Assembly (NCBI GenBank): GCA_021654395.1
Contig: AP024486.1
Location: 780,001 to 812,000 of the forward strand
Length of the DNA stretch: 32,000 bases
Direction: 5' to 3'
Source of the DNA: Candidatus Saccharimonadota bacterium
GTDB lineage: Archaea; Micrarchaeota; Micrarchaeia; Micrarchaeales; Micrarchaeaceae
Of the stretch, positions 11,453 through 32,000 are shown in pieces. A program made the translations under genes and the position numbers. Positions within the stretch are counted from its first letter, which is position 1; each line of letters starts with the position of its first letter. The notes under the pieces are model-generated. The model had not been told where the DNA came from, made no database searches, and was given only the letters and a program-made list of their open reading frames with translations.

Positions 11453-12229
11453 TTGATATTAAAGGTGTCTAACATAACAGATATAACAAGAGATAGCAGT
11501 TCAATTAGATATATTAATACAGATATAGAAGGCTTAAGATCAGCTATAATTAGAGTCATACCAGAAGGCCTTGATGAAAATCTAAGAGCTGAGATTAGAA
11601 GATATTATGAAGAGACAGAACCAGATGGAATTATTACAAGAGTTTCAAGCATAAAGATCCAAGATCCAATAGAAGAGTATATAGATATAACTACATTTAT
11701 TATGCCTTTTGGACTAGCAATCTATGGAAATAGAGATGGTTACTTCACTCCTTTAAAAAATATTAAAAGATTCTTAAATAGAGATTTACTTGTAGAAGCT
11801 ACGAACGACCTTAACGCTTCAATCGAACCTATAGTTGAGAATCCAGAGCTAGATACTAATGCTAGATTCTATCTTTTAAATAGAGATAATGATAAGTCCT
11901 CTAAGGTAATAGCTTTACCAACGCTTGAGATTAGACCATTTATTGATAGAAAGGTTATTAAAGAGACTAGAGATATACAGAAAATTATATTTAGCTTTGA
12001 TCTATTTTACATAGTAAAGATATATAATATTAGTGATGATGAGCTAACAAGGAATCAGATACTTCATAGATATGGCTATGTGCCTATAAAAAATCTGTAT
12101 CGCTTTTGGATAGATCAAGTTGACTCATTTAGGAGCAAGGGTAAAAGCTATTTAGATCTCTTTTATGAAGATAAAGACTTAAAAAAAGAAACATTTAAAA
12201 GCTTTACAATAAAATTTAAGATTGGTTAA
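11453..12229 (+). CDS. Hypothetical protein (258 aa), no recognisable motif; first gene of the tRNA-Pro-adjacent cassette
   Basis: Long uninterrupted ORF with a TTG start and no in-frame ATG until aa ~84. Followed 14 nt later by the next ORF, which has a GGTG SD-like element. More AAA (vs AAG) Lys codons by eye than in neighbouring housekeeping genes. Confidence 0.65.
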   Translation: MILKVSNITDITRDSSSIRYINTDIEGLRSAIIRVIPEGLDENLRAEIRRYYEETEPDGIITRVSSIKIQDPIEEYIDITTFIMPFGLAIYGNRDGYFTPLKNIKRFLNRDLLVEATNDLNASIEPIVENPELDTNARFYLLNRDNDKSSKVIALPTLEIRPFIDRKVIKETRDIQKIIFSFDLFYIVKIYNISDDELTRNQILHRYGYVPIKNLYRFWIDQVDSFRSKGKSYLDLFYEDKDLKKETFKSFTIKFKIG

Positions 12230-12243
12230 TTATTGGTGTCTTA

Positions 12244-13245
12244 TTGAACACTAATAAAAGCCTAAGGAACTCTAATTTTAAGGACCCATCACCCTTCGAA
12301 AAGACTGTTGCTGAACTATTTAAAAATCATTACGTAAAAGATAGTATAACACTAAAGAGAACAAACGATTATATAGAGACATCTGTAGATCTTAAAGATA
12401 AGTTACTAGAGAGGTTAATGCAAGATCATATAATAAAAGGCGTTCTCTACATCATGATTGCCTACGAAGCTTATAAGCATCTCTTCCATATCTATTCTAG
12501 TAAGAAGAAAGACTCTAGAGCGGAATTTAAGGGATTCTTAAGGGATCTTGAATGGACTGTATCGCAAGGTTATATTGAAGATAAAGAAGCTAAAAAGAGT
12601 AAAGGAAATAAGAAGAGGAATAAAGGGAATAATAAAAGAAGGGCTAACTTAAATATAGATGAGCTGCTTAAGTTTTACGGGTTCGATAATAAAGCAATAC
12701 CTTTAATATTAGAATCAGAGCTTAATTATTTTGGAAGAGTTTTATCTAGAAAGAGTGAGGAGGAACTTAGGAAGGTAGCAAATTCTCTATTTAAGACTTT
12801 AAATAAGTACAATCCAGATTTCTTAGTATTTGATCCTAAAGAGATTAGTGACCCCTCATTAATAAGAATAGATGAAGACCTCTTAAAGCATCTAAAGCCA
12901 TATACGATATTAGAAGCCAAGGGCGAACCATACTTTATTGTTATGCTACTTAAGCTTGGTATGATTAAGAATACAGATATAAAGACGATCTATATATTTT
13001 TAGAGAGAGAGCCACCAGATGATCCTATAATAAAGGCTATGCAGGAGAGCATCAATAGATTCCTAAAAGATAATAATGTCGATGAGGAGATGGTTATTAA
13101 TAGACTTATAGATATAATAAGAGAGAACGGCATTGGTATAAATATATACCTAGTAAAGAAAAGAGAGCATTTAGAGATGTATAATACTGATGGCTCTAAT
13201 AAGATAGATCTAGATAATAGGTTTAAGTATAGCACTAGGCCCTAA
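12244..13245 (+). CDS. Hypothetical protein (333 aa) with poly-basic linker and possible PD-(D/E)xK nuclease-like core
   Basis: TTG start 7 nt after GGTG. Basic tract KEAKKSKGNKKRNKGNNKRR (aa ~114-134). NPDFLVFDP...IRIDEDLLKHLKPYTILEAKGE has a PD / D...ExK arrangement within alternating strand-like hydrophobic runs. Confidence 0.65.
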   Translation: MNTNKSLRNSNFKDPSPFEKTVAELFKNHYVKDSITLKRTNDYIETSVDLKDKLLERLMQDHIIKGVLYIMIAYEAYKHLFHIYSSKKKDSRAEFKGFLRDLEWTVSQGYIEDKEAKKSKGNKKRNKGNNKRRANLNIDELLKFYGFDNKAIPLILESELNYFGRVLSRKSEEELRKVANSLFKTLNKYNPDFLVFDPKEISDPSLIRIDEDLLKHLKPYTILEAKGEPYFIVMLLKLGMIKNTDIKTIYIFLEREPPDDPIIKAMQESINRFLKDNNVDEEMVINRLIDIIRENGIGINIYLVKKREHLEMYNTDGSNKIDLDNRFKYSTRP

Positions 13246-14117
13246 TGCGTCTTGTAGTTAATTATTCCTACTTCTACTACAATGCATCTGCTATTTATGT
13301 AATAGATATTACTTGGATTAAATATAGTCACTGGAGTCACTGGGCTCCTTTCTATAACCACCGGGTTGAATGAGACGTCTTTCGAAGCCACTTGATTAGA
13401 GACTGCTCCAGAGTAGTATACTGCATCTGTCTTATTTAATGATGCAGGATTACTTGTATTTCTTATCTGAGAATTAATCGCAAGACCACCTAAAGTATTC
13501 CTTTCTACTACTCCATATGTAATTAAATATAAAGGATGATAATAAGGGACTGCGCAAGATGTTGTAGCATTTAAGGAATAAGCAATCCATAGATATCCAT
13601 GAAACTGTGTTCCTTGTGGTGGAAAGTATGTATCATTTGCTGATACATTATATTGAAACAGGCCAAGATTACCGAATATTGTAAGATTTGCAGAGTAGAT
13701 ATTACCACCGACCATATCAGGCATATATGTATAGTATGGATAGTAAGGATCAAATGTTGAAGGTGTATAATATAGATTTACATTAGATCCGTTCAGACTC
13801 TGATTAGTTGTTATAAAAACTATTGGATTATACCATGTATTTGTAGTTAGCTGACCAAGATGTAGTATCTCTAACTCTCCATTGGATGTATTCACTTTAA
13901 AATAATAGAGATAATGCGTTGTTATATGCCTAGTAAAAGCTATCCCATTACAGATAAATTGTGAGGATGTAATACAGACATCTCCAGCATTTGTATTGAA
14001 TACTCCTAATAGCACTAATGCTATTAGAACTACTGCTATTATCAAGAATGCCCAACCGTATGTTATTAGGTACTCCATTGATGATTGTAGCTTTATCATT
14101 ATGATCAGTTTATACAT
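13242..14117 (-). CDS. Type IV pilin-like protein with class III signal peptide (short paralogue, no Ser/Thr stalk)
   Basis: MIKLQSSMEYLITYGWAFLIIAVVLIALVLLGVF is the same signature as the 87-2309 and 23359-24747 genes, followed by C-x8-C (CITSSQFIC). The likely true start is ATG at 14099 (MIKLQ). Rich in N-x-S/T sequons. Confidence 0.8.
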   Translation of the reverse strand: MYKLIIMIKLQSSMEYLITYGWAFLIIAVVLIALVLLGVFNTNAGDVCITSSQFICNGIAFTRHITTHYLYYFKVNTSNGELEILHLGQLTTNTWYNPIVFITTNQSLNGSNVNLYYTPSTFDPYYPYYTYMPDMVGGNIYSANLTIFGNLGLFQYNVSANDTYFPPQGTQFHGYLWIAYSLNATTSCAVPYYHPLYLITYGVVERNTLGGLAINSQIRNTSNPASLNKTDAVYYSGAVSNQVASKDVSFNPVVIERSPVTPVTIFNPSNIYYINSRCIVVEVGIINYKTH

Positions 14118-17165: not shown

Positions 17166-18341
17166 TCATTGAGAGCCTTCATCTTCGATTTTATCTAGAA
17201 GCTTCTTGAAATTCTTCAGATATAAATCAAGTGTATCTTTTTCCATTTTACCTTCAATTACATTATTTATACACTTTCCATATATAGCAACAAGTATCTC
17301 CTTAAAACGATCTATATCCTCTCGCTCGGCTTCTTTAGATAAGGCTCTAAGGCTCTTGAGTAATAAGCTCAAAGTACTCATTGTTATAGTTTTAGTATTA
17401 AAGGCTGCTTCTATATCCTCATTTAGTTCTATTTTACCATGTGTCGTAATAGAGCCTAAAACAGGTATTTTGTATGTTGTCTCTTCATCAGGTTGAGATT
17501 TATTTACTACTGATTCGTATACCTTAGCTATTACTGATTTAGCTCCATTATTATCAATTTCTCCTAGTATAAATATACGATCTACACAAGCTGATAAGGG
17601 AGTTATCATATTAATAAAATCTTTAAAGCTTACCTGATCAGATCTTATTAGCAATGAATCTGCTATATCTACGACTTTACCCAAATACTCCTCAAGCTTC
17701 TCTCTCTTTATGTTAAGTGCACTGTTTTTATAGAATGTATAAAGCAATGAAAATAACTTTATTGTATCGAGTAAAGAATCCTTATCTATATCTCCAACTT
17801 TAAATTTCAATGGTAATACATCATTATTATCATCTGACCTTATCTCTTGTTTTACTTTTTGTTCAGTAGGATTGAGATAGCCGTATACCTTGTCAAAAAA
17901 CTCGTATGTCGTATCTTTGTCAAAAGCTGCAATAAGATTCTCTAAGTTACTATACCCTTTTGGATTACTAGCTATTCTAACTGCATATCTTGCATATACA
18001 AATGGAGGTAAGATATAAGATCTATATAAAGCTTCTATTATCTTTGATAATAAATCTAAATTGTCTATATTATTAACATTCTTATTTATTATATCTAATA
18101 CTATATTAAGCTTGTTTGGATCTCTTGAGAGATCCATCCTTGTCTCATCTCCTATTATATACTGGAAACGAGGCCCGACACACTCAATTATTCCCGATAT
18201 ATTAGGATTCGATTTTGCTGCTGACCAAGAAGAGTCATCAAATCCGCACAATAATTGTTTTATATTCAGATATCTGTAGAGCTCCTCAAGTGATAGCTCA
18301 CTATTAATACCTTCTTTATTAGCTTCTTTGTTAACGGACAA
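17166..18341 (-). CDS. Hypothetical protein (391 aa), orphan, composition suggests mostly helical
   Basis: Long ORF with a TTG start, flanked by ~100-120 nt non-coding spacers on both sides. By eye, Lys is mostly AAA here, whereas neighbours prefer AAG. No recognisable catalytic or binding motif. Confidence 0.65.
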   Translation of the reverse strand: MSVNKEANKEGINSELSLEELYRYLNIKQLLCGFDDSSWSAAKSNPNISGIIECVGPRFQYIIGDETRMDLSRDPNKLNIVLDIINKNVNNIDNLDLLSKIIEALYRSYILPPFVYARYAVRIASNPKGYSNLENLIAAFDKDTTYEFFDKVYGYLNPTEQKVKQEIRSDDNNDVLPLKFKVGDIDKDSLLDTIKLFSLLYTFYKNSALNIKREKLEEYLGKVVDIADSLLIRSDQVSFKDFINMITPLSACVDRIFILGEIDNNGAKSVIAKVYESVVNKSQPDEETTYKIPVLGSITTHGKIELNEDIEAAFNTKTITMSTLSLLLKSLRALSKEAEREDIDRFKEILVAIYGKCINNVIEGKMEKDTLDLYLKNFKKLLDKIEDEGSQ

Positions 18342-24963: not shown

Positions 24964-25200
24964 GTGTTAGATTTGAGAGGAAGAGAGACCATAGTAATAT
25001 GCGATGCTTGTGGTAGAAAGATTCCTAGAAATAAAGCAGTTGCTGTAGAGAAACCTATAAACTTAGGAGTTAGTGGGGATCTAGGAAATGTAAGATTATT
25101 CGAAAAGAGGAAGGTTTATTACTGTATAAGCTGTGCTAAGCATAGAGGTATATTCGAGATGAAGAAGAGGATGAATAGAAAGGAAGAGAGATATGAATAA
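24964..25200 (+). CDS. rps26e: 30S ribosomal protein S26e
   Basis: VICDACGRKIPRNKAVAVEK...YYCISCAKHRGI matches the S26e pattern (V.CD.CG..VP.DKA...K.....YC.SCA.H..I). Basic C-terminus. The start is either GTG 24964 or TTG 24973, after a GGTG element. Confidence 0.7.
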   Translation: MLDLRGRETIVICDACGRKIPRNKAVAVEKPINLGVSGDLGNVRLFEKRKVYYCISCAKHRGIFEMKKRMNRKEERYE

Positions 25201-26002
25201 TGACTCGAATGAGTCAGAGTTAGCCATAATAAAAAATAGAAGAAATCCAGAAGAAGATGCTAATAGATATCTTAATATCATAAACTCTTATTTTGTAAAT
25301 CAGAGGGCATCTTCTCAGAAAAAAGCGGTTAAGAGCCAAGTAGCTAAGCAATCTGTAAGCAAAGAGCAGAAGAAGAAGCTCACAGCAAACCAGAAGAAAA
25401 GGAGAATAGATGCTGCGAATAAGGTCTGTGTGTGGCATCCTTGGCGCAGAGCATATGCTATATGTGCTTATTGCAATAGAGCATTCTGCTATGAAGATCT
25501 AGAAGAGCTTAATGGAGATTATTACTGTCTAGAGGATGTAAATAAGGTAGCCTTTGAAAGCCAGCAGAATTTAGACTTTAATAAGCTATACCTGCTTGGA
25601 AGTATACTGCTTGTATCATTAATATTTGTATACTCGTTTATACTACCAAGCTCATTAAATAGCATAATAGATATTATAACATCGTCTAATCTTAATGTTA
25701 TAGTACAAAAGATATTATCTTTTAATCTACCAATAATAATACTAATATTAACTTATCTACTATTATCTATAAGCTTTATTAGCGGATTAATAACATTAGT
25801 AATACCCGAGAAAGGATATGCTATCTCTATAGCTATAGCGCTTCTAGAGTTTGGATTATTTTTATATAACTATGTAAATACCCTAACGTTAGGTTATCTT
25901 ATAGCTGCTATTATATCTATTATAGCATTAGTAAGCATGGCTGCTTCAAAGAAAGGATCATCTATAGCTGCAGAGACAGCAGGCAGCAGTGCAGTATACT
26001 AA
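25193..26002 (+). CDS. Membrane protein with basic N-terminal region, B-box-like Cys/His zinc finger and about 4 C-terminal TM helices
   Basis: CVWHPWRRAYAICAYCNRAFCYEDLEELNGDYYC (C-x2-H-x7-C-x2-C-x4-C-x12-C), followed by hydrophobic spans (LYLLGSILLVSLIFVYSFIL, etc.). The ATG overlaps the S26e gene end by 8 nt. Confidence 0.7.
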   Translation: MNNDSNESELAIIKNRRNPEEDANRYLNIINSYFVNQRASSQKKAVKSQVAKQSVSKEQKKKLTANQKKRRIDAANKVCVWHPWRRAYAICAYCNRAFCYEDLEELNGDYYCLEDVNKVAFESQQNLDFNKLYLLGSILLVSLIFVYSFILPSSLNSIIDIITSSNLNVIVQKILSFNLPIIILILTYLLLSISFISGLITLVIPEKGYAISIAIALLEFGLFLYNYVNTLTLGYLIAAIISIIALVSMAASKKGSSIAAETAGSSAVY

Positions 26003-27367: not shown

Positions 27368-28201
27368 TTAATCTAGCTGCTCAAATGTGCTAAGATTTAC
27401 GGCTACATGATAGTTAGATATGCTGCTTGGTAATCTATTATAAGGGTTACTTATACCTTGCTTTAAGAATGCAATCTCTAATGTTAGATTCTGATTCTGC
27501 TTTAATGGCTCGTTTAAGAGTACATAAAAACTTGCAGAGCTTGATGTATTTGAGCAGCCAGATACACAAGTGCTTAGTAATGGTGTATAGTTATTTAAGA
27601 ATACTATATTGCTTAAGCTGCTGCTCTCTATATCTGTATAGTTCTTAGGATCTATAGTAAATGATACTGCCGCATCTGCTGGTATAATTGGATAATCTGT
27701 ATCTTTTATGCTTATAAGCTGCAATGCTATGGCGCTTGTATAGTTATCTTCTATATGAAGCTGCTTTATGAATAGATTGTCTGTTTGGTTTATATAAAGC
27801 ATAGCATTATATATTACAGAGATCTTATAGAAGCGATTCTGATATATAGCAATTGATTGATTTATAATAGAGATATTATAGTCTAGCTGCTTACTAAGAT
27901 TTTCTGTATACCTATGCATGCTCTGATTTATAGAGTTTGCTATAAGATACTGCGTAGTGCTATTTATCGGATAGTAGAAGTTATCTGCTACTGCTGAGTA
28001 TATCGCGCTGGTAAGCATAGATCTTATATCGCTATATATTAGATAGTAGCTACTACTAGAGTCTCTTAGCTGATATAATGCCTGCAGTGATTGACTTAGC
28101 AGTATATTCTGTAATGCGTATGTAATTATTAAGCTAAATATAATAATGAATATTATAAATATCGTTAAAGTAAAGACAAATCCTCTCTTCTTATAGATCA
28201 T
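27368..28201 (-). CDS. Prepilin-like protein 4 of the LamG operon (277 aa)
   Basis: MIYKKRGFVFTLTIFIIFIIIFSLIITYAL has a short basic N-terminus plus a G-F-x-F-T-L-like junction and a long hydrophobic helix. The remainder is Asn/Ser/Tyr-rich with many sequons. The start is 3 nt after the upstream stop. Confidence 0.7.
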   Translation of the reverse strand: MIYKKRGFVFTLTIFIIFIIIFSLIITYALQNILLSQSLQALYQLRDSSSSYYLIYSDIRSMLTSAIYSAVADNFYYPINSTTQYLIANSINQSMHRYTENLSKQLDYNISIINQSIAIYQNRFYKISVIYNAMLYINQTDNLFIKQLHIEDNYTSAIALQLISIKDTDYPIIPADAAVSFTIDPKNYTDIESSSLSNIVFLNNYTPLLSTCVSGCSNTSSSASFYVLLNEPLKQNQNLTLEIAFLKQGISNPYNRLPSSISNYHVAVNLSTFEQLD

Positions 28202-28203
28202 AC

Positions 28204-28710
28204 CTATCCAACTCTATATATAAGAACCTTATAGGCATTATTATTATAATAGACGTAGATCTCTGAGCCAGCTATAGTCTGATTTGCATATATAGATGAT
28301 ATACTCTGCTCCTCTAGGCTATTAAATCTAAGATTATAGTAGTAGCATGTACTATCTACGCATATTCCGTAGTATCTTGTATCTATTATATGCGTCTCTA
28401 TATAAGCTATAGCTAGAGGATTATTATGCTGATTTAGATATACTAGAGCATATGCTATGCTGTAATATCCAGGAACATAAGTACCATTTATTATATATCC
28501 ATCTTGATTATAAGAGTAGTTACAAGGCGCTATATAATTACAAAAGTAGTATATCTGCTCATTTAGCTGACTTACATCTTGCTTTATATTTGAATAAGGA
28601 GTATTGTACTGCTGCTCTGCAAATGCTATAGCTACAGATAATGCAGCCACTATAAGTGCTGTTACTATTAGGCTAAACAATGCATCTATACTGAATATTA
28701 TTAGTTTCAT
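28204..28710 (-). CDS. Prepilin-like protein 3 of the LamG operon (168 aa)
   Basis: MKLIIFSIDALFSLIVTALIVAALSVAIAF has a short charged N-terminus plus a hydrophobic helix, followed by a Tyr/Asn-rich extracellular-type domain with Cys pairs. It starts directly after the upstream stop (stop codon 28712-28714, start 28710). Confidence 0.7.
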   Translation of the reverse strand: MKLIIFSIDALFSLIVTALIVAALSVAIAFAEQQYNTPYSNIKQDVSQLNEQIYYFCNYIAPCNYSYNQDGYIINGTYVPGYYSIAYALVYLNQHNNPLAIAYIETHIIDTRYYGICVDSTCYYYNLRFNSLEEQSISSIYANQTIAGSEIYVYYNNNAYKVLIYRVG

Positions 28711-28711
28711 A

Positions 28712-29245
28712 CTAATCCCACAGCTCTATATAAACCTCTACAGGGTAGCTTCCAATATATGTAAGCCTTCTTTCTACATATACATCATTTGCATTCTTCG
28801 GCTTCTTTCCTATTGATATATTTATAGAGCTATTCTCCATGCCTATTATATTGATATAGTAGTTATATTGAGAGCCAAGTGCCACTTGCGTCATAGAGTA
28901 ATTAAGATTACTCATAGCTATAAGAGTATATAGCTTCTCTGGCATTATCGTATTATTGCTACCAAGTATCCCTGGAGTTATAAGAGGCCATTGCTGAGGA
29001 TCACTTAGATTTACATAATCATACCAGTTGCTTGGATATCCTTCAGAGAGTATATTGCTATATACAGATAACACAGAGTATGGAATCTCTGCCTGATTGT
29101 TATAGCTGTTGAATGAAAGATCTGTAGCTATAGAGTTATAATAGAACATAATAAAAGTTAAGCTTATTGCAAATACGGCTAATGCAACCATTATATCCAA
29201 GCTATATATCTGTAGCTTCATGTACATCTTAATCAACATCTCCAT
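28712..29245 (-). CDS. Prepilin-like protein 2 of the LamG operon (177 aa in track; probable start at 29221, MKLQIYSLD...)
   Basis: MKLQIYSLDIMVALAVFAISLTFIMFYY shares the KLQ junction seen in MKLQSAMEF of the 87-2309 gene. The maximal track ORF overlaps the 893-aa gene end by 17 nt. Confidence 0.7.
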   Translation of the reverse strand: MEMLIKMYMKLQIYSLDIMVALAVFAISLTFIMFYYNSIATDLSFNSYNNQAEIPYSVLSVYSNILSEGYPSNWYDYVNLSDPQQWPLITPGILGSNNTIMPEKLYTLIAMSNLNYSMTQVALGSQYNYYINIIGMENSSINISIGKKPKNANDVYVERRLTYIGSYPVEVYIELWD

Positions 29246-31910
29246 TATAATAGTAAACTTGTGGAATAGGATCTGATGCTATCTGTGATACTGCACTCTG
29301 ATTCAATGCTGCATAGTATAGCTGAAGGTTTGATATGCTTCCATTAAATCCTCTGCCAACAATAATATTATTTATTAGGCCGCTTGATGAGCAGCTAGTC
29401 TGATTCTGGAGTAAGCCATTTATATATATTAAGCATACGCTACCACTATTTACAACTATTATATTATATAGATCTCTTGTATTCATCTTTAAACCATTAT
29501 AGTATATGTTTAACGCCTTACCATTTATATTTAGAGCTATGCTACCGTTATTCCAGTATGCTGTAAACATGCCTGGTAGATCTATAATCTGACACTCTGA
29601 GCTACATCCAAATGGATATATATCGAATGAAACGGTATAAGCGTTATGTATATCTGTAAGCATCCCCTCTGCTGGTATAGTTATATAATTGTTACTATTA
29701 AATACTGGAGCTAATACATCTGTATATCTGCTAGGAGATTGTATATAAGAGAAGTTAACATTAGATGTAACTACTGTTCTTGGGTTAAAATAATCCGAAG
29801 CATTACCATCAAGTAGATACCATGCAACTGCGCCATAACTGAGAGGGGCGTCTAATGGATTATTGTACAGATTATTCACCTGCAATGAATTTAATGATAC
29901 GTTATATATCTGCAAGTTAGTTATATATCCCTTCATATATTCTCCATTAAGCTGATCCGCACCTACAACTATATCTCCTGCGATATGCGTACCTACAAGA
30001 CTACTTACATCCCTGCCTATTGAGTTACATATATTAGTTATATTAGATAAGCTTCCATCTACATATAGAGACTGAAATGACTTATTTATATAATATGTAA
30101 TCATATACCATCTATTATATGAGTAGATCTGTGGTGTAGATGCAAGTATATATCTATTACCGTTATTAGGAACATAACCGTATATTATGCCATAAGTGTT
30201 ATTTGCCAATGATGTAGAGTAAGCATAAATAACAAACTGATTTGTGCTACCTGCTGAAAGTATTGGCTCTGAGTAGACATTACATATATACTTGTTAGAT
30301 AAAGCGCCTTTCGGTATATTAATCCAAAGATTAATAGTAAAGTAGTTAGAGTTAAACTTATTGTTAAAAAGGTTTATTATATTATATCCAGTATCTATAT
30401 AGTTAGAGCCCTTAAAGTCTGCAGCCAGTATAGGAGAGGTGTCTGTAGGTAGATTACTCCATATAGGATCAGTAAAGCTTCCATTAACATAGCCTGCTCT
30501 TAGATCATATACTATGCTTCCATAGCCCTCATCTAAAGGATACCAACCTGCAAGATAGTCGTATAGAGATTCATATGGAAAAGCATTAAGCACAAGCCTC
30601 TCATAAGATAGATTACCTCCAGTTATAGAAAGATTGTACTGATTTACTCCAGCTATAACAGATAGATTCTTAGAGCTACTATAGTTGAATGTACCATTTC
30701 CTATTACTCCATAATCTGTAAATAATGAGTTGTTGCTGCTATATCTAATTACTTCGATCTTCGCAAATGTTATATAGCTTAGTGAGCTCCCTGTGCCAGC
30801 AGATCCACTAATATAGTTTAAGAGGTTACCATCTAGATTAAACCAGTCTACAAGATTGCTACTAAACTGCTCATAAAATGGATTAAATGAAGGCCCATTA
30901 TTATATAATAGACTTATACTATTACCTGGTAGAGGTATATTGTATATCTGAATATCTGCTATATTACCATTATAGTTAGATGATGCATTGTATGTAAGTA
31001 GGTATAGCTGATTTCCTTTTGGTAATCTAAAGCCAGCTACTATACGTTGAGCTATTAGCTTTCCATTAAAGTAGAGATCTAATATACCGTTATTATAAAC
31101 TATCCCTATATTAGATAAGCTGCCGTATGGCTCATTAATAGTATATTGATAGCTTAGATCTCCGAATGTTAGATATAAGTTGTTGCCTTTTAGTATAACT
31201 AATGTCTGGCACTGCTGCGGATCATTAGCTACGCAGCTACTGCTATTAGATATAGTAATTAAAGGACCGTTATTATCTGGGCTTTGCAGTACCCAGAATG
31301 TTATTGAGAACTCTGTTGTTTGGTTAGTTATAGAGCTTAGTGGCTCTTCTATATATCCATTGTTAGATATATTTGCTAACCTTATTGCATAATTTATATA
31401 AGGTACTGCTGACGAGCTTGAATAGCTATTATACTGTAGCTGTAGATTATTTATATATAAAACCCCAAAGTGCTTCTCTATCCTTATAAAGCCAGATGAT
31501 GCATTTATGATATATAAGCCGTTGCTAAGCTCTTCAGTTGAGTTTATTATTATGCCTCTAACAGGCGCATCAGAGTAAGCAGTAATCTGATTGTTACCTA
31601 TATTTATAATACCCTCTATAAATCCATTCTTAGTTAAAGCTATTATTGGCTTATGACCATCTATCACATATAAAGGCATTTGTATATTTATATTTGAGTT
31701 AGATACTGCAGCAATATCTATATATGATGCTATAATATTAACATAAGACTGAAGAAGCTTAAGATCTCTATTTGCAACTATGCTGCTATCCTGTGCAGAT
31801 ATAAGTAAGAATATTATGGCGAATAGAGTTAGAGCTACCATAGATATTATAAAAAACTCCAAAGCTATCTGAAGTCTGAATGCCTTAAGCATAAGATCAT
31901 CAAGCAACAA
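29229..31910 (-). CDS. Large prepilin-like surface protein with three LamG/concanavalin-A-like lectin repeats (893 aa)
   Basis: N-terminus KAFRLQIALEFFIISMVALTLFAIIFLLI. There are three internal repeats (aa ~175-340, ~455-690, ~695-880). Each opens with W(F/Y)xLDG/E (DWFNLDGN, WYPLDEGYG, WYLLDGNASD). Each has a core like FSITFWV / FTINLWI / YTVSFDI. Each closes with GNIADIQIYNIPL / GYITNLQIYNVSL / GSISNLQLYYAAL, the hallmark ending of LamG_3-type domains. Confidence 0.8.
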   Translation of the reverse strand: MLLDDLMLKAFRLQIALEFFIISMVALTLFAIIFLLISAQDSSIVANRDLKLLQSYVNIIASYIDIAAVSNSNINIQMPLYVIDGHKPIIALTKNGFIEGIINIGNNQITAYSDAPVRGIIINSTEELSNGLYIINASSGFIRIEKHFGVLYINNLQLQYNSYSSSSAVPYINYAIRLANISNNGYIEEPLSSITNQTTEFSITFWVLQSPDNNGPLITISNSSSCVANDPQQCQTLVILKGNNLYLTFGDLSYQYTINEPYGSLSNIGIVYNNGILDLYFNGKLIAQRIVAGFRLPKGNQLYLLTYNASSNYNGNIADIQIYNIPLPGNSISLLYNNGPSFNPFYEQFSSNLVDWFNLDGNLLNYISGSAGTGSSLSYITFAKIEVIRYSSNNSLFTDYGVIGNGTFNYSSSKNLSVIAGVNQYNLSITGGNLSYERLVLNAFPYESLYDYLAGWYPLDEGYGSIVYDLRAGYVNGSFTDPIWSNLPTDTSPILAADFKGSNYIDTGYNIINLFNNKFNSNYFTINLWINIPKGALSNKYICNVYSEPILSAGSTNQFVIYAYSTSLANNTYGIIYGYVPNNGNRYILASTPQIYSYNRWYMITYYINKSFQSLYVDGSLSNITNICNSIGRDVSSLVGTHIAGDIVVGADQLNGEYMKGYITNLQIYNVSLNSLQVNNLYNNPLDAPLSYGAVAWYLLDGNASDYFNPRTVVTSNVNFSYIQSPSRYTDVLAPVFNSNNYITIPAEGMLTDIHNAYTVSFDIYPFGCSSECQIIDLPGMFTAYWNNGSIALNINGKALNIYYNGLKMNTRDLYNIIVVNSGSVCLIYINGLLQNQTSCSSSGLINNIIVGRGFNGSISNLQLYYAALNQSAVSQIASDPIPQVYYYNGDVD

Positions 31911-31957
31911 TTAATTATTTATAAATTGTTAAACAAAGTTTAAAATAAGATAGTATT

Positions 31958-32000
31958 ATGAAAAGGAGCACTTTACTGAGAATGCTAAAGAGAGAAGGAT
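31958..32000 (+). CDS. 5' end of an unidentified CDS leaving the right window edge (MKRSTLLRMLKREG...)
   Basis: ATG at 31958, open to the window end (14 codons). Divergent from the LamG operon. Too short to identify. Confidence 0.25.
   Translation, partial: MKRSTLLRMLKREG

Follow-up and report, generated by a model that had tools for sequence, protein, structure and literature searches.

Pilin-like and LamG-domain proteins encoded by a four-gene operon of the archaeal ectosymbiont ARM-1: a likely member of a recurring accessory-pilin/adhesin module

Introduction

In 2016, Makarova, Koonin and Albers modelled archaeal pilus loci that combine an ATPase gene and two TadC genes with genes for five or more minor pilins and for large DUF2341 proteins; for the DUF2341 proteins a role as PilY1-like tip adhesins was predicted (PMC4858521). 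In a 2026 preprint, DPANN archaea appear among the carriers of 'system 1' loci, which have split platform genes and adhesin-like proteins (bioRxiv 10.64898/2026.04.22.720090). Here, a four-gene operon on the minus strand of a 32,000-nucleotide stretch (the window; contig AP024486.1, positions 780,001 to 812,000) of the genome of ARM-1 ('Candidatus Micrarchaeota archaeon', DPANN) is compared with such loci. All four products have pilin-like N-termini, and the first carries three LamG domains. An earlier note on this DNA had called the genes a candidate undescribed module that could not, from sequence alone, be placed in any named archaeal pilus locus type. That claim is overstated: related loci share the layout of known archaeal type IV pilus systems (PMC4858521; bioRxiv 10.64898/2026.04.22.720090), and a link between LamG proteins and pilus loci had been noted in Mia14 (PMC5498576). 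Judged by sequence comparison, the ARM-1 operon is a divergent, reduced copy of a recurring pilus accessory/adhesin module and not a new kind of system.

ARM-1 is an obligate ectosymbiont, and flaI and flaJ have been reported in its genome (PMC8784108). Cryo-electron tomography showed ARM-1 cells with thin filaments, which 'could represent archaeal pili' (PMC11329633). Pilins, pili genes and LamG proteins are mentioned in neither of these two papers. In Mia14 ('Ca. Mancarchaeum acidiphilum'), a member of the same phylum-level group, Golyshina et al. (2017) found LamG jelly-roll proteins to be expanded, some of them in pilus loci, and proposed that they act in host interaction (PMC5498576). The Mia14 paper gives no gene-by-gene description, assigns the LamG proteins to no pilin module and names no four-gene unit; the parallel between Mia14 and ARM-1 is one of description. 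Among bacteria, a three-protein complex of Streptococcus sanguinis, PilA-PilB-PilC, has been worked out, in which a small pilin stabilises two 'modular pilins': PilB, with a vWA module, and PilC, whose ConA-like lectin module binds host glycans (PMC8179133, PMC9934059).

Results

The four genes form one operon

Four co-oriented open reading frames (ORFs) lie on the minus strand at 29229..31910, 28712..29245, 28204..28710 and 27368..28201 (maximal extents). They are present as the earlier note gave them, and the N-terminal hydrophobic segments that it quoted for all four products are correct. In the public gene calls the products have 887, 171, 168 and 277 amino acids (aa); gene 1 is ARM1_0846 (on the 814,439-bp contig) and gene 2 is ARM1_0845. 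With the public starts, the spacers between consecutive genes are 1, 1 and 2 nucleotides (nt). The gene boundaries had been described as abutting or overlapping. The genes do abut, but the overlap disappears, gene 2 most likely starting at ATG 29227 (171 aa, MYMKLQ..., as in the public call) and not at 29245. Translation of gene 1 from TTG 31910 would give 893 aa and from ATG 31892 887 aa, with the N-terminus MLKAFRLQIALEF; the ATG is favoured because of the public call and the position of a TATA-like box.

This box (tttataaata), visible in the sequence itself about 28 nt before ATG 31892, is the probable promoter of the four-gene operon and would give rise to a near-leaderless transcript. Purine-rich motifs resembling Shine-Dalgarno sequences were seen upstream of genes 2-4, and no such motif upstream of gene 1. 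Downstream of gene 4 stands an L21e ribosomal protein gene. It is separated from gene 4 by 47 nt and has a TATA-like box to itself, which places the end of the operon at 27368 and limits the unit to exactly four genes. A scan for bacterial-type promoters and terminators was uninformative, as expected for an archaeon.

Three protein families and their gene order are conserved

An exhaustive phmmer search of 1.84 billion representative proteins was carried out with the N-domain of gene 1 and genes 2, 3 and 4 concatenated as the query (E <= 0.001). The 155 matches fell into three families, corresponding to the gene 1 N-domain, gene 2 and gene 4. The first family comprises about 70 proteins, mostly of 680-1250 aa, which resemble the initial 150-200 residues of gene 1 at their own N-termini. 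The second, likewise of about 70 proteins (158-190 aa), is similar to gene 2 from end to end. Gene 4 is matched from the N-terminus by proteins of 485-516 aa, and many other surface proteins match residues about 158-250 only. Named family members come from metagenome-assembled genomes (MAGs) of Micrarchaeales, Woesearchaeota and Diapherotrites. A word-index search with gene 1 returned only the protein itself; word-index profile searches gave 11 matches with alignment A1 and 8 with alignment A2, which provided names and genomic contexts. The ARM-1 proteins are the most divergent members of their families (23-34% identity) and retain all invariant residues of families 1 and 2. Eight positions are invariant in A1, the alignment of the gene 2 family (Q6, D11, G63, P65, G86, K98, Y110 and G140).

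For synteny, metagenomes were scanned with the gene 1 N-domain alignment, and the resulting 26 loci were mapped with profiles built from the families. Every locus with enough sequence has the same fixed order: a gene-1-like gene (900-1030 aa), a gene-2-like gene (~185 aa), a third gene (400-740 aa) that resembles ARM-1 gene 3 at its N-terminus, and a gene-4-like gene (500-1100 aa). The four-gene order was observed in 16 related loci, one of which was found via gene 2. After gene 4, two T2SSF genes and a T2SSE ATPase gene in convergent orientation are present in seven of the nine loci with at least 1.5 kb of flank. A gene of about 230-250 aa lies between the T2SSF genes and the ATPase gene in L006 and L037. 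Loci L015 and L038 have no adjacent assembly genes, which is also the case in ARM-1. The third and fourth proteins of the relatives carry LamG domains as well, and some third genes encode a beta-propeller; the ARM-1 module is stripped-down, with LamG modules left in gene 1 only.

The same order is seen in pilus loci of Woesearchaeota. These begin with a 134-aa DUF7266-like protein that matches the gene 1 N-domain profile (P1N), followed by a gene-2-like protein. The third protein (~930 aa) has the N-terminal motif of the third genes and, in L004 and L011, a VWA domain. The fourth (~350 aa) matches the gene 4 N-domain profile in two loci, and a PilB3-like ATPase gene and two T2SSF genes come next. 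DUF7266 and DUF7287 are uncharacterised archaeal Pfam families to which no function has been assigned, and no papers on them were found in a literature search. Thus the co-conservation check proposed earlier came out in favour of the module, the four genes being syntenic in relatives and usually placed beside a pilus ATPase gene and two platform genes. An N-terminal hydrophobic segment occurs in 10 of the 31 genes of the window and is thus common by itself. The four-gene pattern is nevertheless more than chance, because the families of genes 1, 2 and 4 and their cleavage-site motif are conserved and because the gene order recurs in 16 other loci.

Extra class III-type genes occur right after the module in related loci (L038, 18197-20435; L009, 14729-15163), with the N-termini MRTNNA/QSIVEMLSTYSWA (181 aa) and GA/QSIVEMLSMYSWA (525 aa). 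These genes, with a small 144-aa pilin as a further candidate, could be the major pilins that the ARM-1 module lacks.

Class III signal sites and the leucine at position -1

Family members were aligned on the cleavage motif and their residues tallied, ARM-1 entries included. In family 1 (n=81), Gln stands at +1 in all 81 sequences and K or R at -2 in 73; position -1 is A in 42, G in 19, S in 14 and L in 6, and Glu is found at +5 (QIALE). Family 2 (n=80) has Gln at +1 in 79, K or R at -2 in 71, and G (37), A (30), L (7), S (5) or M (1) at -1, with Asp at +6. The 19 third-position genes have the motif F-x-F-[ST]-x-D-[AG] in common, beginning with the F after the cleavage site; Asp is at +6, and the residue at -1 is G (13), A (5) or L (1). 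Family 4 (n=25) shows a hydrophobic residue at +1, K or R at -2 in 22 and G at -1 in 22, with no acidic residue at +5/+6.

The N-termini had been taken earlier for class III / type IV prepilin signals, and the family-wide pattern agrees: position -2 is K/R and position -1 A/G/S, families 1 and 2 share an invariant Gln at +1, and families 1-3 are acidic at +5 or +6. As read from the aligned sequences, the residues are arranged as in prepilin cleavage sites. The Pfam Class_IIIsignal motif of archaeal pilins processed by EppA typically has Gln at +1.

The ARM-1 sites are RL/Q in gene 1, KL/Q in gene 2, KL/I in gene 3 (IIFSID, with Asp at +6) and KKRG/FVFTLTIF in gene 4. A basic residue and a hydrophobic stretch are found in genes 1-3, but only gene 4 has Gly at -1. 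Leu occupies this position in the other three products. Because of this Leu, cleavage of the products of genes 1-3 by a standard prepilin peptidase is doubtful and their processing is not assured. At the L029 locus, a Leu -1 site is found beside Gly sites in one organism.

Class III-like N-termini of the type 'Q-x-x-x-E/D-[FY]-L-x-x-Y-G-W-A' are found on three further large proteins of the window (740, 291 and 462 aa): MKL/QSAMEFLTSYGWA, IKL/QSSMEYLITYGWA and KRQ/QAALDFLITYGWA, respectively. The 462-aa and 740-aa proteins are 41% identical over 140 aa (E 2e-16), and the 291-aa protein matches each of them over the N-terminal 36-51 aa only. All three resemble a 144-aa pilin-like gene of a Woesearchaeota pilus locus; significant Pfam matches were not obtained for any. 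Seven pilin-like genes are thus present in the window in total, with Leu at -1 in five of the products, Gln in one and Gly in one. The recurrence of Leu -1 in ARM-1 pilin-like proteins suggests an altered peptidase specificity or pilins that function uncleaved.

Domains and predicted folds of the four proteins

Pfam Laminin_G_3 matched gene 1 in three stretches (E 2.6e-29; 102.7 bits against a cut-off of 27.6 bits), and the motif G-x-I-x-[DN]-[IL]-Q-[IL]-Y occurs in it exactly three times, at residues 309-317, 655-663 and 851-859. The three LamG repeats with a shared closing motif described earlier were thereby recovered. In the AlphaFold model (mean predicted local distance difference test score, pLDDT, 70.8; about 60-86 in the N-module), a helix at 4-63 and strands at 68-147 are followed by beta-sandwich domains. 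With this model Foldseek retrieved LNS domains of neurexin, LG domains of laminin and pentraxins (E 7e-15 to 1e-6), and the gene 1 family profile found solved LamG-type carbohydrate-binding modules among PDB sequences (E 1e-16). The LamG fold is therefore confirmed by Pfam, by Foldseek of the predicted model and by the PDB profile search. Weak matches to DUF7266 were given by the gene 1 homologue in L006 and by the stand-alone 134-aa Woesearchaeota proteins, both of which match the P1N profile.

DUF7287 was matched by nine of 34 gene 2 family members (best E 2.3e-6). The ARM-1 proteins themselves match neither DUF7266 nor DUF7287 in Pfam. Searches of genes 2-4 against Pfam and NCBIfam gave nothing significant, and none of the four ARM-1 proteins matched a pilin model. 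The AlphaFold model of gene 2, built with the family alignment (pLDDT 93.7), has a continuous helix at 3-59 and an alpha/beta head with a 4-stranded sheet. The modelled helices of genes 1 and 2 run on for 57-60 residues, far longer than a membrane span; such lengths are a hallmark of type IV pilins. As predicted in these models, the long N-terminal helix and the beta-sheet head of both proteins have the architecture of type IV pilins.

Gene 3 is a short and divergent occupant of its position, which in relatives is filled by a protein of 400-940 aa with a LamG or VWA domain. Over its first 24 residues it is 54% identical to the third gene of L006, and the third-position profile matches it at the N-terminus only. 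The possibility that gene 3 is a paralogue of gene 2 was rejected, similarity by hhalign and BLAST being confined to the first 22-24 residues.

Gene 4 matches the gene 4 N-domain profile (P4N) with an E value of 2e-91, its position is kept in the 16 loci, and it has no acidic residue at +5/+6. Residues 177-249 make up the part that is matched in many other surface proteins. The closest gene 4 homologue, that of L006, scores above the DUF2341 threshold (26.3 against 23.4 bits), as do in total two of the 15 aligned family members. ARM-1 gene 4 itself gave no significant Pfam match to DUF2341, and the region is recognised only by its alignment to the corresponding domain region of the L006 homologue.

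Surroundings of the operon

The other genes of the window are metabolic or housekeeping genes, and no pilus machinery is encoded within the 32 kb; the absence of an assembly ATPase gene noted earlier is correct. The advice to look beyond position 32000 proved useful. A T2SSE/FlaI-like ATPase gene lies ~1.3 kb past this point, divergently oriented and behind an Ogt-like gene; on the public contig the order past the window is the Ogt-like gene, the 440-aa T2SSE ATPase gene, Top6A and LonB. The ATPase scores 225 bits with the FlaI model, which is below the cut-off. That the ATPase and the module form a conserved unit was considered and rejected: a scan of the genome collection found only two orthologues of the ATPase, neither of them near module or platform genes. 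The adjacency to the operon is suggestive and does not show that the two belong together. In the Micrarchaeota MAG L002 the ATPase gene is again paired with Top6A, and in MAG L003 it stands beside Cdc6/Orc1. The protein looks like a conserved 'orphan' secretion ATPase of the lineage.

Between the ATPase gene and the operon is encoded a 104-aa protein with an Ogt/MGMT C-terminal domain (TIGR00589, 66 bits), which consists of the DNA-binding/active-site domain only. A membrane protein at 25193-26002 has a Cys-rich motif like a zinc ribbon in its N-terminal part (CVWHPWRRAYAICAYCNRAFCY) and several transmembrane segments towards the C-terminus; it belongs to no Pfam family. Its counterpart, with the motif CVNHPWRKAFAHCAECGRPFCY, is found near the orphan ATPase gene of a Kamchatka Micrarchaeales MAG (L003). 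Three cytoplasmic-looking proteins of 258, 333 and 391 aa, encoded at 11453-13245 (+) and 17166-18341 (-), have no Pfam family at E <= 0.001 and gave chance-level matches at lenient thresholds.

Table 1. Features of the operon and its surroundings (window positions unless a locus is named)
Feature	Position	Strand	Remarks
Gene 1, 887 aa	29229..31892	-	ORF, public gene call; class III-like N-terminus, pilin-like head and three LamG lectin-type domains
Gene 1, residues 1-63	31704..31892	-	Leader MLKAFRL, predicted cleavage before QIALEF (Gln +1, Glu +5); continuous helix 4-63 in the AlphaFold2 (AF2) model
Gene 1, residues 64-150	31443..31703	-	Beta-sheet head of the pilin-like module; strands 68-147 in the AF2 model; distant kin of Pfam DUF7266
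LamG domain 1, about residues 165-335	30888..31400	-	Borders approximate; closing motif GNIADIQIY at 30942-30968; beta-sandwich secondary structure
LamG domain 2, about residues 450-680	29853..30545	-	Best Pfam stretch, residues 502-672 (29877-30389); closing motif GYITNLQIY at 29904-29930
LamG domain 3, about residues 690-880	29253..29825	-	Closing motif GSISNLQLY at 29316-29342
Gene 2, 171 aa	28712..29227	-	Leader MYMKL, then QIYSLD; conserved family of 158-190 aa in DPANN pilus loci
Gene 3, 168 aa	28204..28710	-	Pilin-like N-terminus, MKL then IIFSIDALFSLIV
Gene 4, 277 aa	27368..28201	-	Canonical class III N-terminus, MIYKKRG then FVFTLTIF; N-domain shared with relatives of 500-1100 aa
Gene 4, residues 177-249	27455..27673	-	Aligns to the DUF2341 domain of the closest relatives (shared ...SGCS... 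segment)
TATA-like box, tttataaata	31916..31925	-	~28 nt upstream of ATG 31892
Leu -1 sites of genes 1, 2 and 3	31869-31874, 29210-29215, 28699-28704
Further Leu -1 sites	2298-2303, about 14083-14088
FlaI/TadA-like T2SSE ATPase, 440 aa	L001 5019-6341		Window 32000 = L001 6711; beside Top6A, no platform gene
Ogt/MGMT C-terminal-domain protein, 104 aa	L001 6415-6729	-
Class III-like protein, 740 aa	87-2309	-
Class III-like protein, 291 aa	13242-14117	-
Class III-like protein, 462 aa	23359-24747	-
Zinc-ribbon-like membrane protein	25193-26002	+
Its counterpart in the Kamchatka MAG	L003 12732-13355	-

Discussion

Among the closest known systems are the archaeal type IV filament 'clade/system 1' (Epd type) loci and related DPANN loci. 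As in these, several distinct proteins with class III signals are encoded together and the major pilins elsewhere, and the large proteins with ConA-like domains (DUF2341, LamG) are predicted adhesins, as in the Epd-type and DPANN loci. In the relatives of ARM-1 the module also stands beside one ATPase gene and two T2SSF genes. Gln at +1 is a signature shared with EppA-processed pilins. Unlike in Epd-type loci, the platform genes of ARM-1 are not adjacent to the module, no dedicated peptidase gene is nearby, and the four protein families are not recognised by current Pfam and NCBIfam pilin models. The Epd locus of Methanococcus has 11 genes, against four in the ARM-1 module.

The closest worked-out parallel is the S. 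sanguinis complex, with its small plain pilin and its large pilins bearing grafted adhesion modules. The lectin/ConA-like module resembles gene 1, and the vWA module the third-position gene of the Woesearchaeota relatives. That complex is predicted to be tip-located and has one subunit without an acidic residue at +5, comparable to gene 4. Unlike the ARM-1 set, it is bacterial and has three subunits, and there is no detectable sequence homology between the two; glycan binding and complex formation have been demonstrated in S. sanguinis and are proposed for ARM-1. The earlier analogy with minor-pilin tip complexes is also a reasonable one. GspH-I-J-K and FimU-PilV-W-X with PilY1 are likewise sets of four pilin-like genes in conserved order, apart from the major pilin gene, with one member that has no acidic +5 residue and with a large adhesin associated. 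They differ from the ARM-1 set in that no sequence or fold match connects the two, that the adhesive modules of ARM-1 are fused to pilins and not carried by a separate non-pilin PilY1, and that archaea have no secretin or outer-membrane components.

We consider it likely, with a probability of about 0.65, that the products of the four genes are type IV pilin-like proteins with class III signals and that the genes are the ARM-1 version of a four-gene accessory-pilin/adhesin module of Micrarchaeota, which has a simpler form in other DPANN archaea. Sec would insert each protein so that the hydrophobic helix at its N-terminus lies in the membrane, and a prepilin peptidase would then remove the short basic leader. 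A type IV pilus machine, made up of a FlaI/PilB-type ATPase and a FlaJ/TadC-type platform, would extract and bundle the helices. The gene 2 protein may associate with the pilin modules of the others in a minor-pilin complex, which would initiate the filament and finally be located at its tip or along its length. By analogy with the HIJK complexes, the acid-less gene 4 product may sit on top of this complex. In this way the LamG domains of the gene 1 product would be displayed together with the DUF2341-like domain of the gene 4 product, and they probably bind glycans on the host (Sulfolobales) or on other surfaces, with a possible role in host attachment.

Several observations weigh against this assignment. 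Three of the four ARM-1 proteins have Leu at -1, whereas more than 90% of their relatives have A, G or S. Genes 3 and 4 are far shorter than their counterparts (168 against 400-940 aa and 277 against 500-1100 aa), and gene 3 has no detectable homologue past its first 24 residues, phmmer matching only the protein itself. No T2SSF platform gene or prepilin peptidase gene was found in the ~39 kb of ARM-1 sequence examined. The neighbouring ATPase is distant from those of the syntenic loci, with E values of about 1e-35 to 1e-41, compared with 1e-131 to 1e-163 for its orthologues. The orthologues come from two Micrarchaeota MAGs (58% and 52% identity), and in both the four-gene module and T2SSF genes are missing from their neighbourhood. 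Foldseek of the gene 2 model against the PDB gave nothing at E <= 0.001, the best match being ribosomal uS3 (TM-score 0.26), and a PDB profile search found no sequence relative of gene 2. The lack of a match between the gene 2 head and solved pilins is a weak negative, since pilin heads are highly variable. The ARM-1 papers give no expression or localisation data for the four genes.

The Leu -1 sites allow a more specific proposal, which we regard as speculative and rather doubtful. In ARM-1 and a minority of relatives the class III signal would be non-canonical, with Leu before the cleavage site (K/R-L then Q), which implies a peptidase of altered specificity or pilins that work uncleaved. 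The module would then be the host-recognition tip of the thin ARM-1 filaments, and the triple-LamG subunit would bind surface-layer glycans shared by the several Sulfolobales hosts. It is also conceivable, though unlikely, that the class III signals and a pilus-type machine anchor a short pseudopilus or surface array near the membrane, which would serve nutrient or glycan capture in the manner of a bindosome and form no long adhesive filament. Large ligand-binding modules fused to class III N-termini are the design of the bindosome, known from Sulfolobus sugar-binding proteins (bioRxiv 10.64898/2026.04.22.720090), ARM-1 depends on host metabolites (PMC8784108), the module has no small major-pilin gene, and three more large class III-like proteins are encoded in the window. 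The domains concerned, however, are of lectin type (LamG, DUF2341) and not ABC substrate-binding folds, and no ABC (ATP-binding cassette) transporter is linked to the module in ARM-1 or its relatives. The conserved four-gene order with one small plain pilin-like protein is also closer to minor-pilin sets than to substrate-binding proteins.

Decay of a module that has been cut off from its assembly genes would leave proteins that are at most uncleaved membrane-anchored lectins, or inactive. The shortened genes 3 and 4, the Leu -1 sites, the divergence of the ARM-1 sequences, which is the greatest in their families, and the L21e gene standing where seven of nine relatives have two T2SSF genes and a T2SSE gene would all fit such a remnant. 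Yet none of the four reading frames is disrupted, their coupling is tight, no invariant residue of families 1 and 2 has been lost, and L015 and L038 are likewise separated from assembly genes. Leu at -1 recurs (in 6 of 81 sequences of family 1 and 7 of 80 of family 2, including ARM-1, in L029 and in two more ARM-1 proteins), which suggests that the site is tolerated, and a reduced genome of 814 kb would rarely be expected to retain 4.5 kb of useless coding sequence. A decaying remnant is quite improbable. Very improbable is that the proteins are ordinary signal-anchored membrane or envelope proteins, with plain transmembrane anchors whose likeness to prepilins is coincidental. This could be supposed from the frequency of hydrophobic N-termini in the window (10 of 31 genes), from the failure of the ARM-1 proteins to match Pfam pilin models and from the lack of a structural match of the gene 2 model to solved pilins. 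Position-specific conservation of the site ([KR][AGS], invariant Gln, acidic +5/+6) over about 80 members per family, continuous helices that extend far beyond a membrane span, and the repeated location of the module beside T2SSE and T2SSF genes argue strongly against it.

In the literature found, no previous description was met with of the fixed order of four families across DPANN archaea, of LamG proteins as modular pilins or of the Leu -1 sites. The families, for which definitions are now supplied, consist of proteins that current domain libraries leave unannotated. The non-canonical Leu -1 cleavage sites are part of the value of the finding. Across Micrarchaeota and Woesearchaeota the four families keep their order and carry interchangeable LamG, VWA, beta-propeller and DUF2341 modules, which suggests that modular minor-pilin complexes are put together in archaea in much the same way as in bacteria. 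Few DPANN archaea are available in stable co-culture; ARM-1 is one of them, and several Sulfolobales serve as hosts to which it attaches. For host recognition in this cultivable DPANN system, ARM1_0846 and the other three proteins are concrete, testable candidates.

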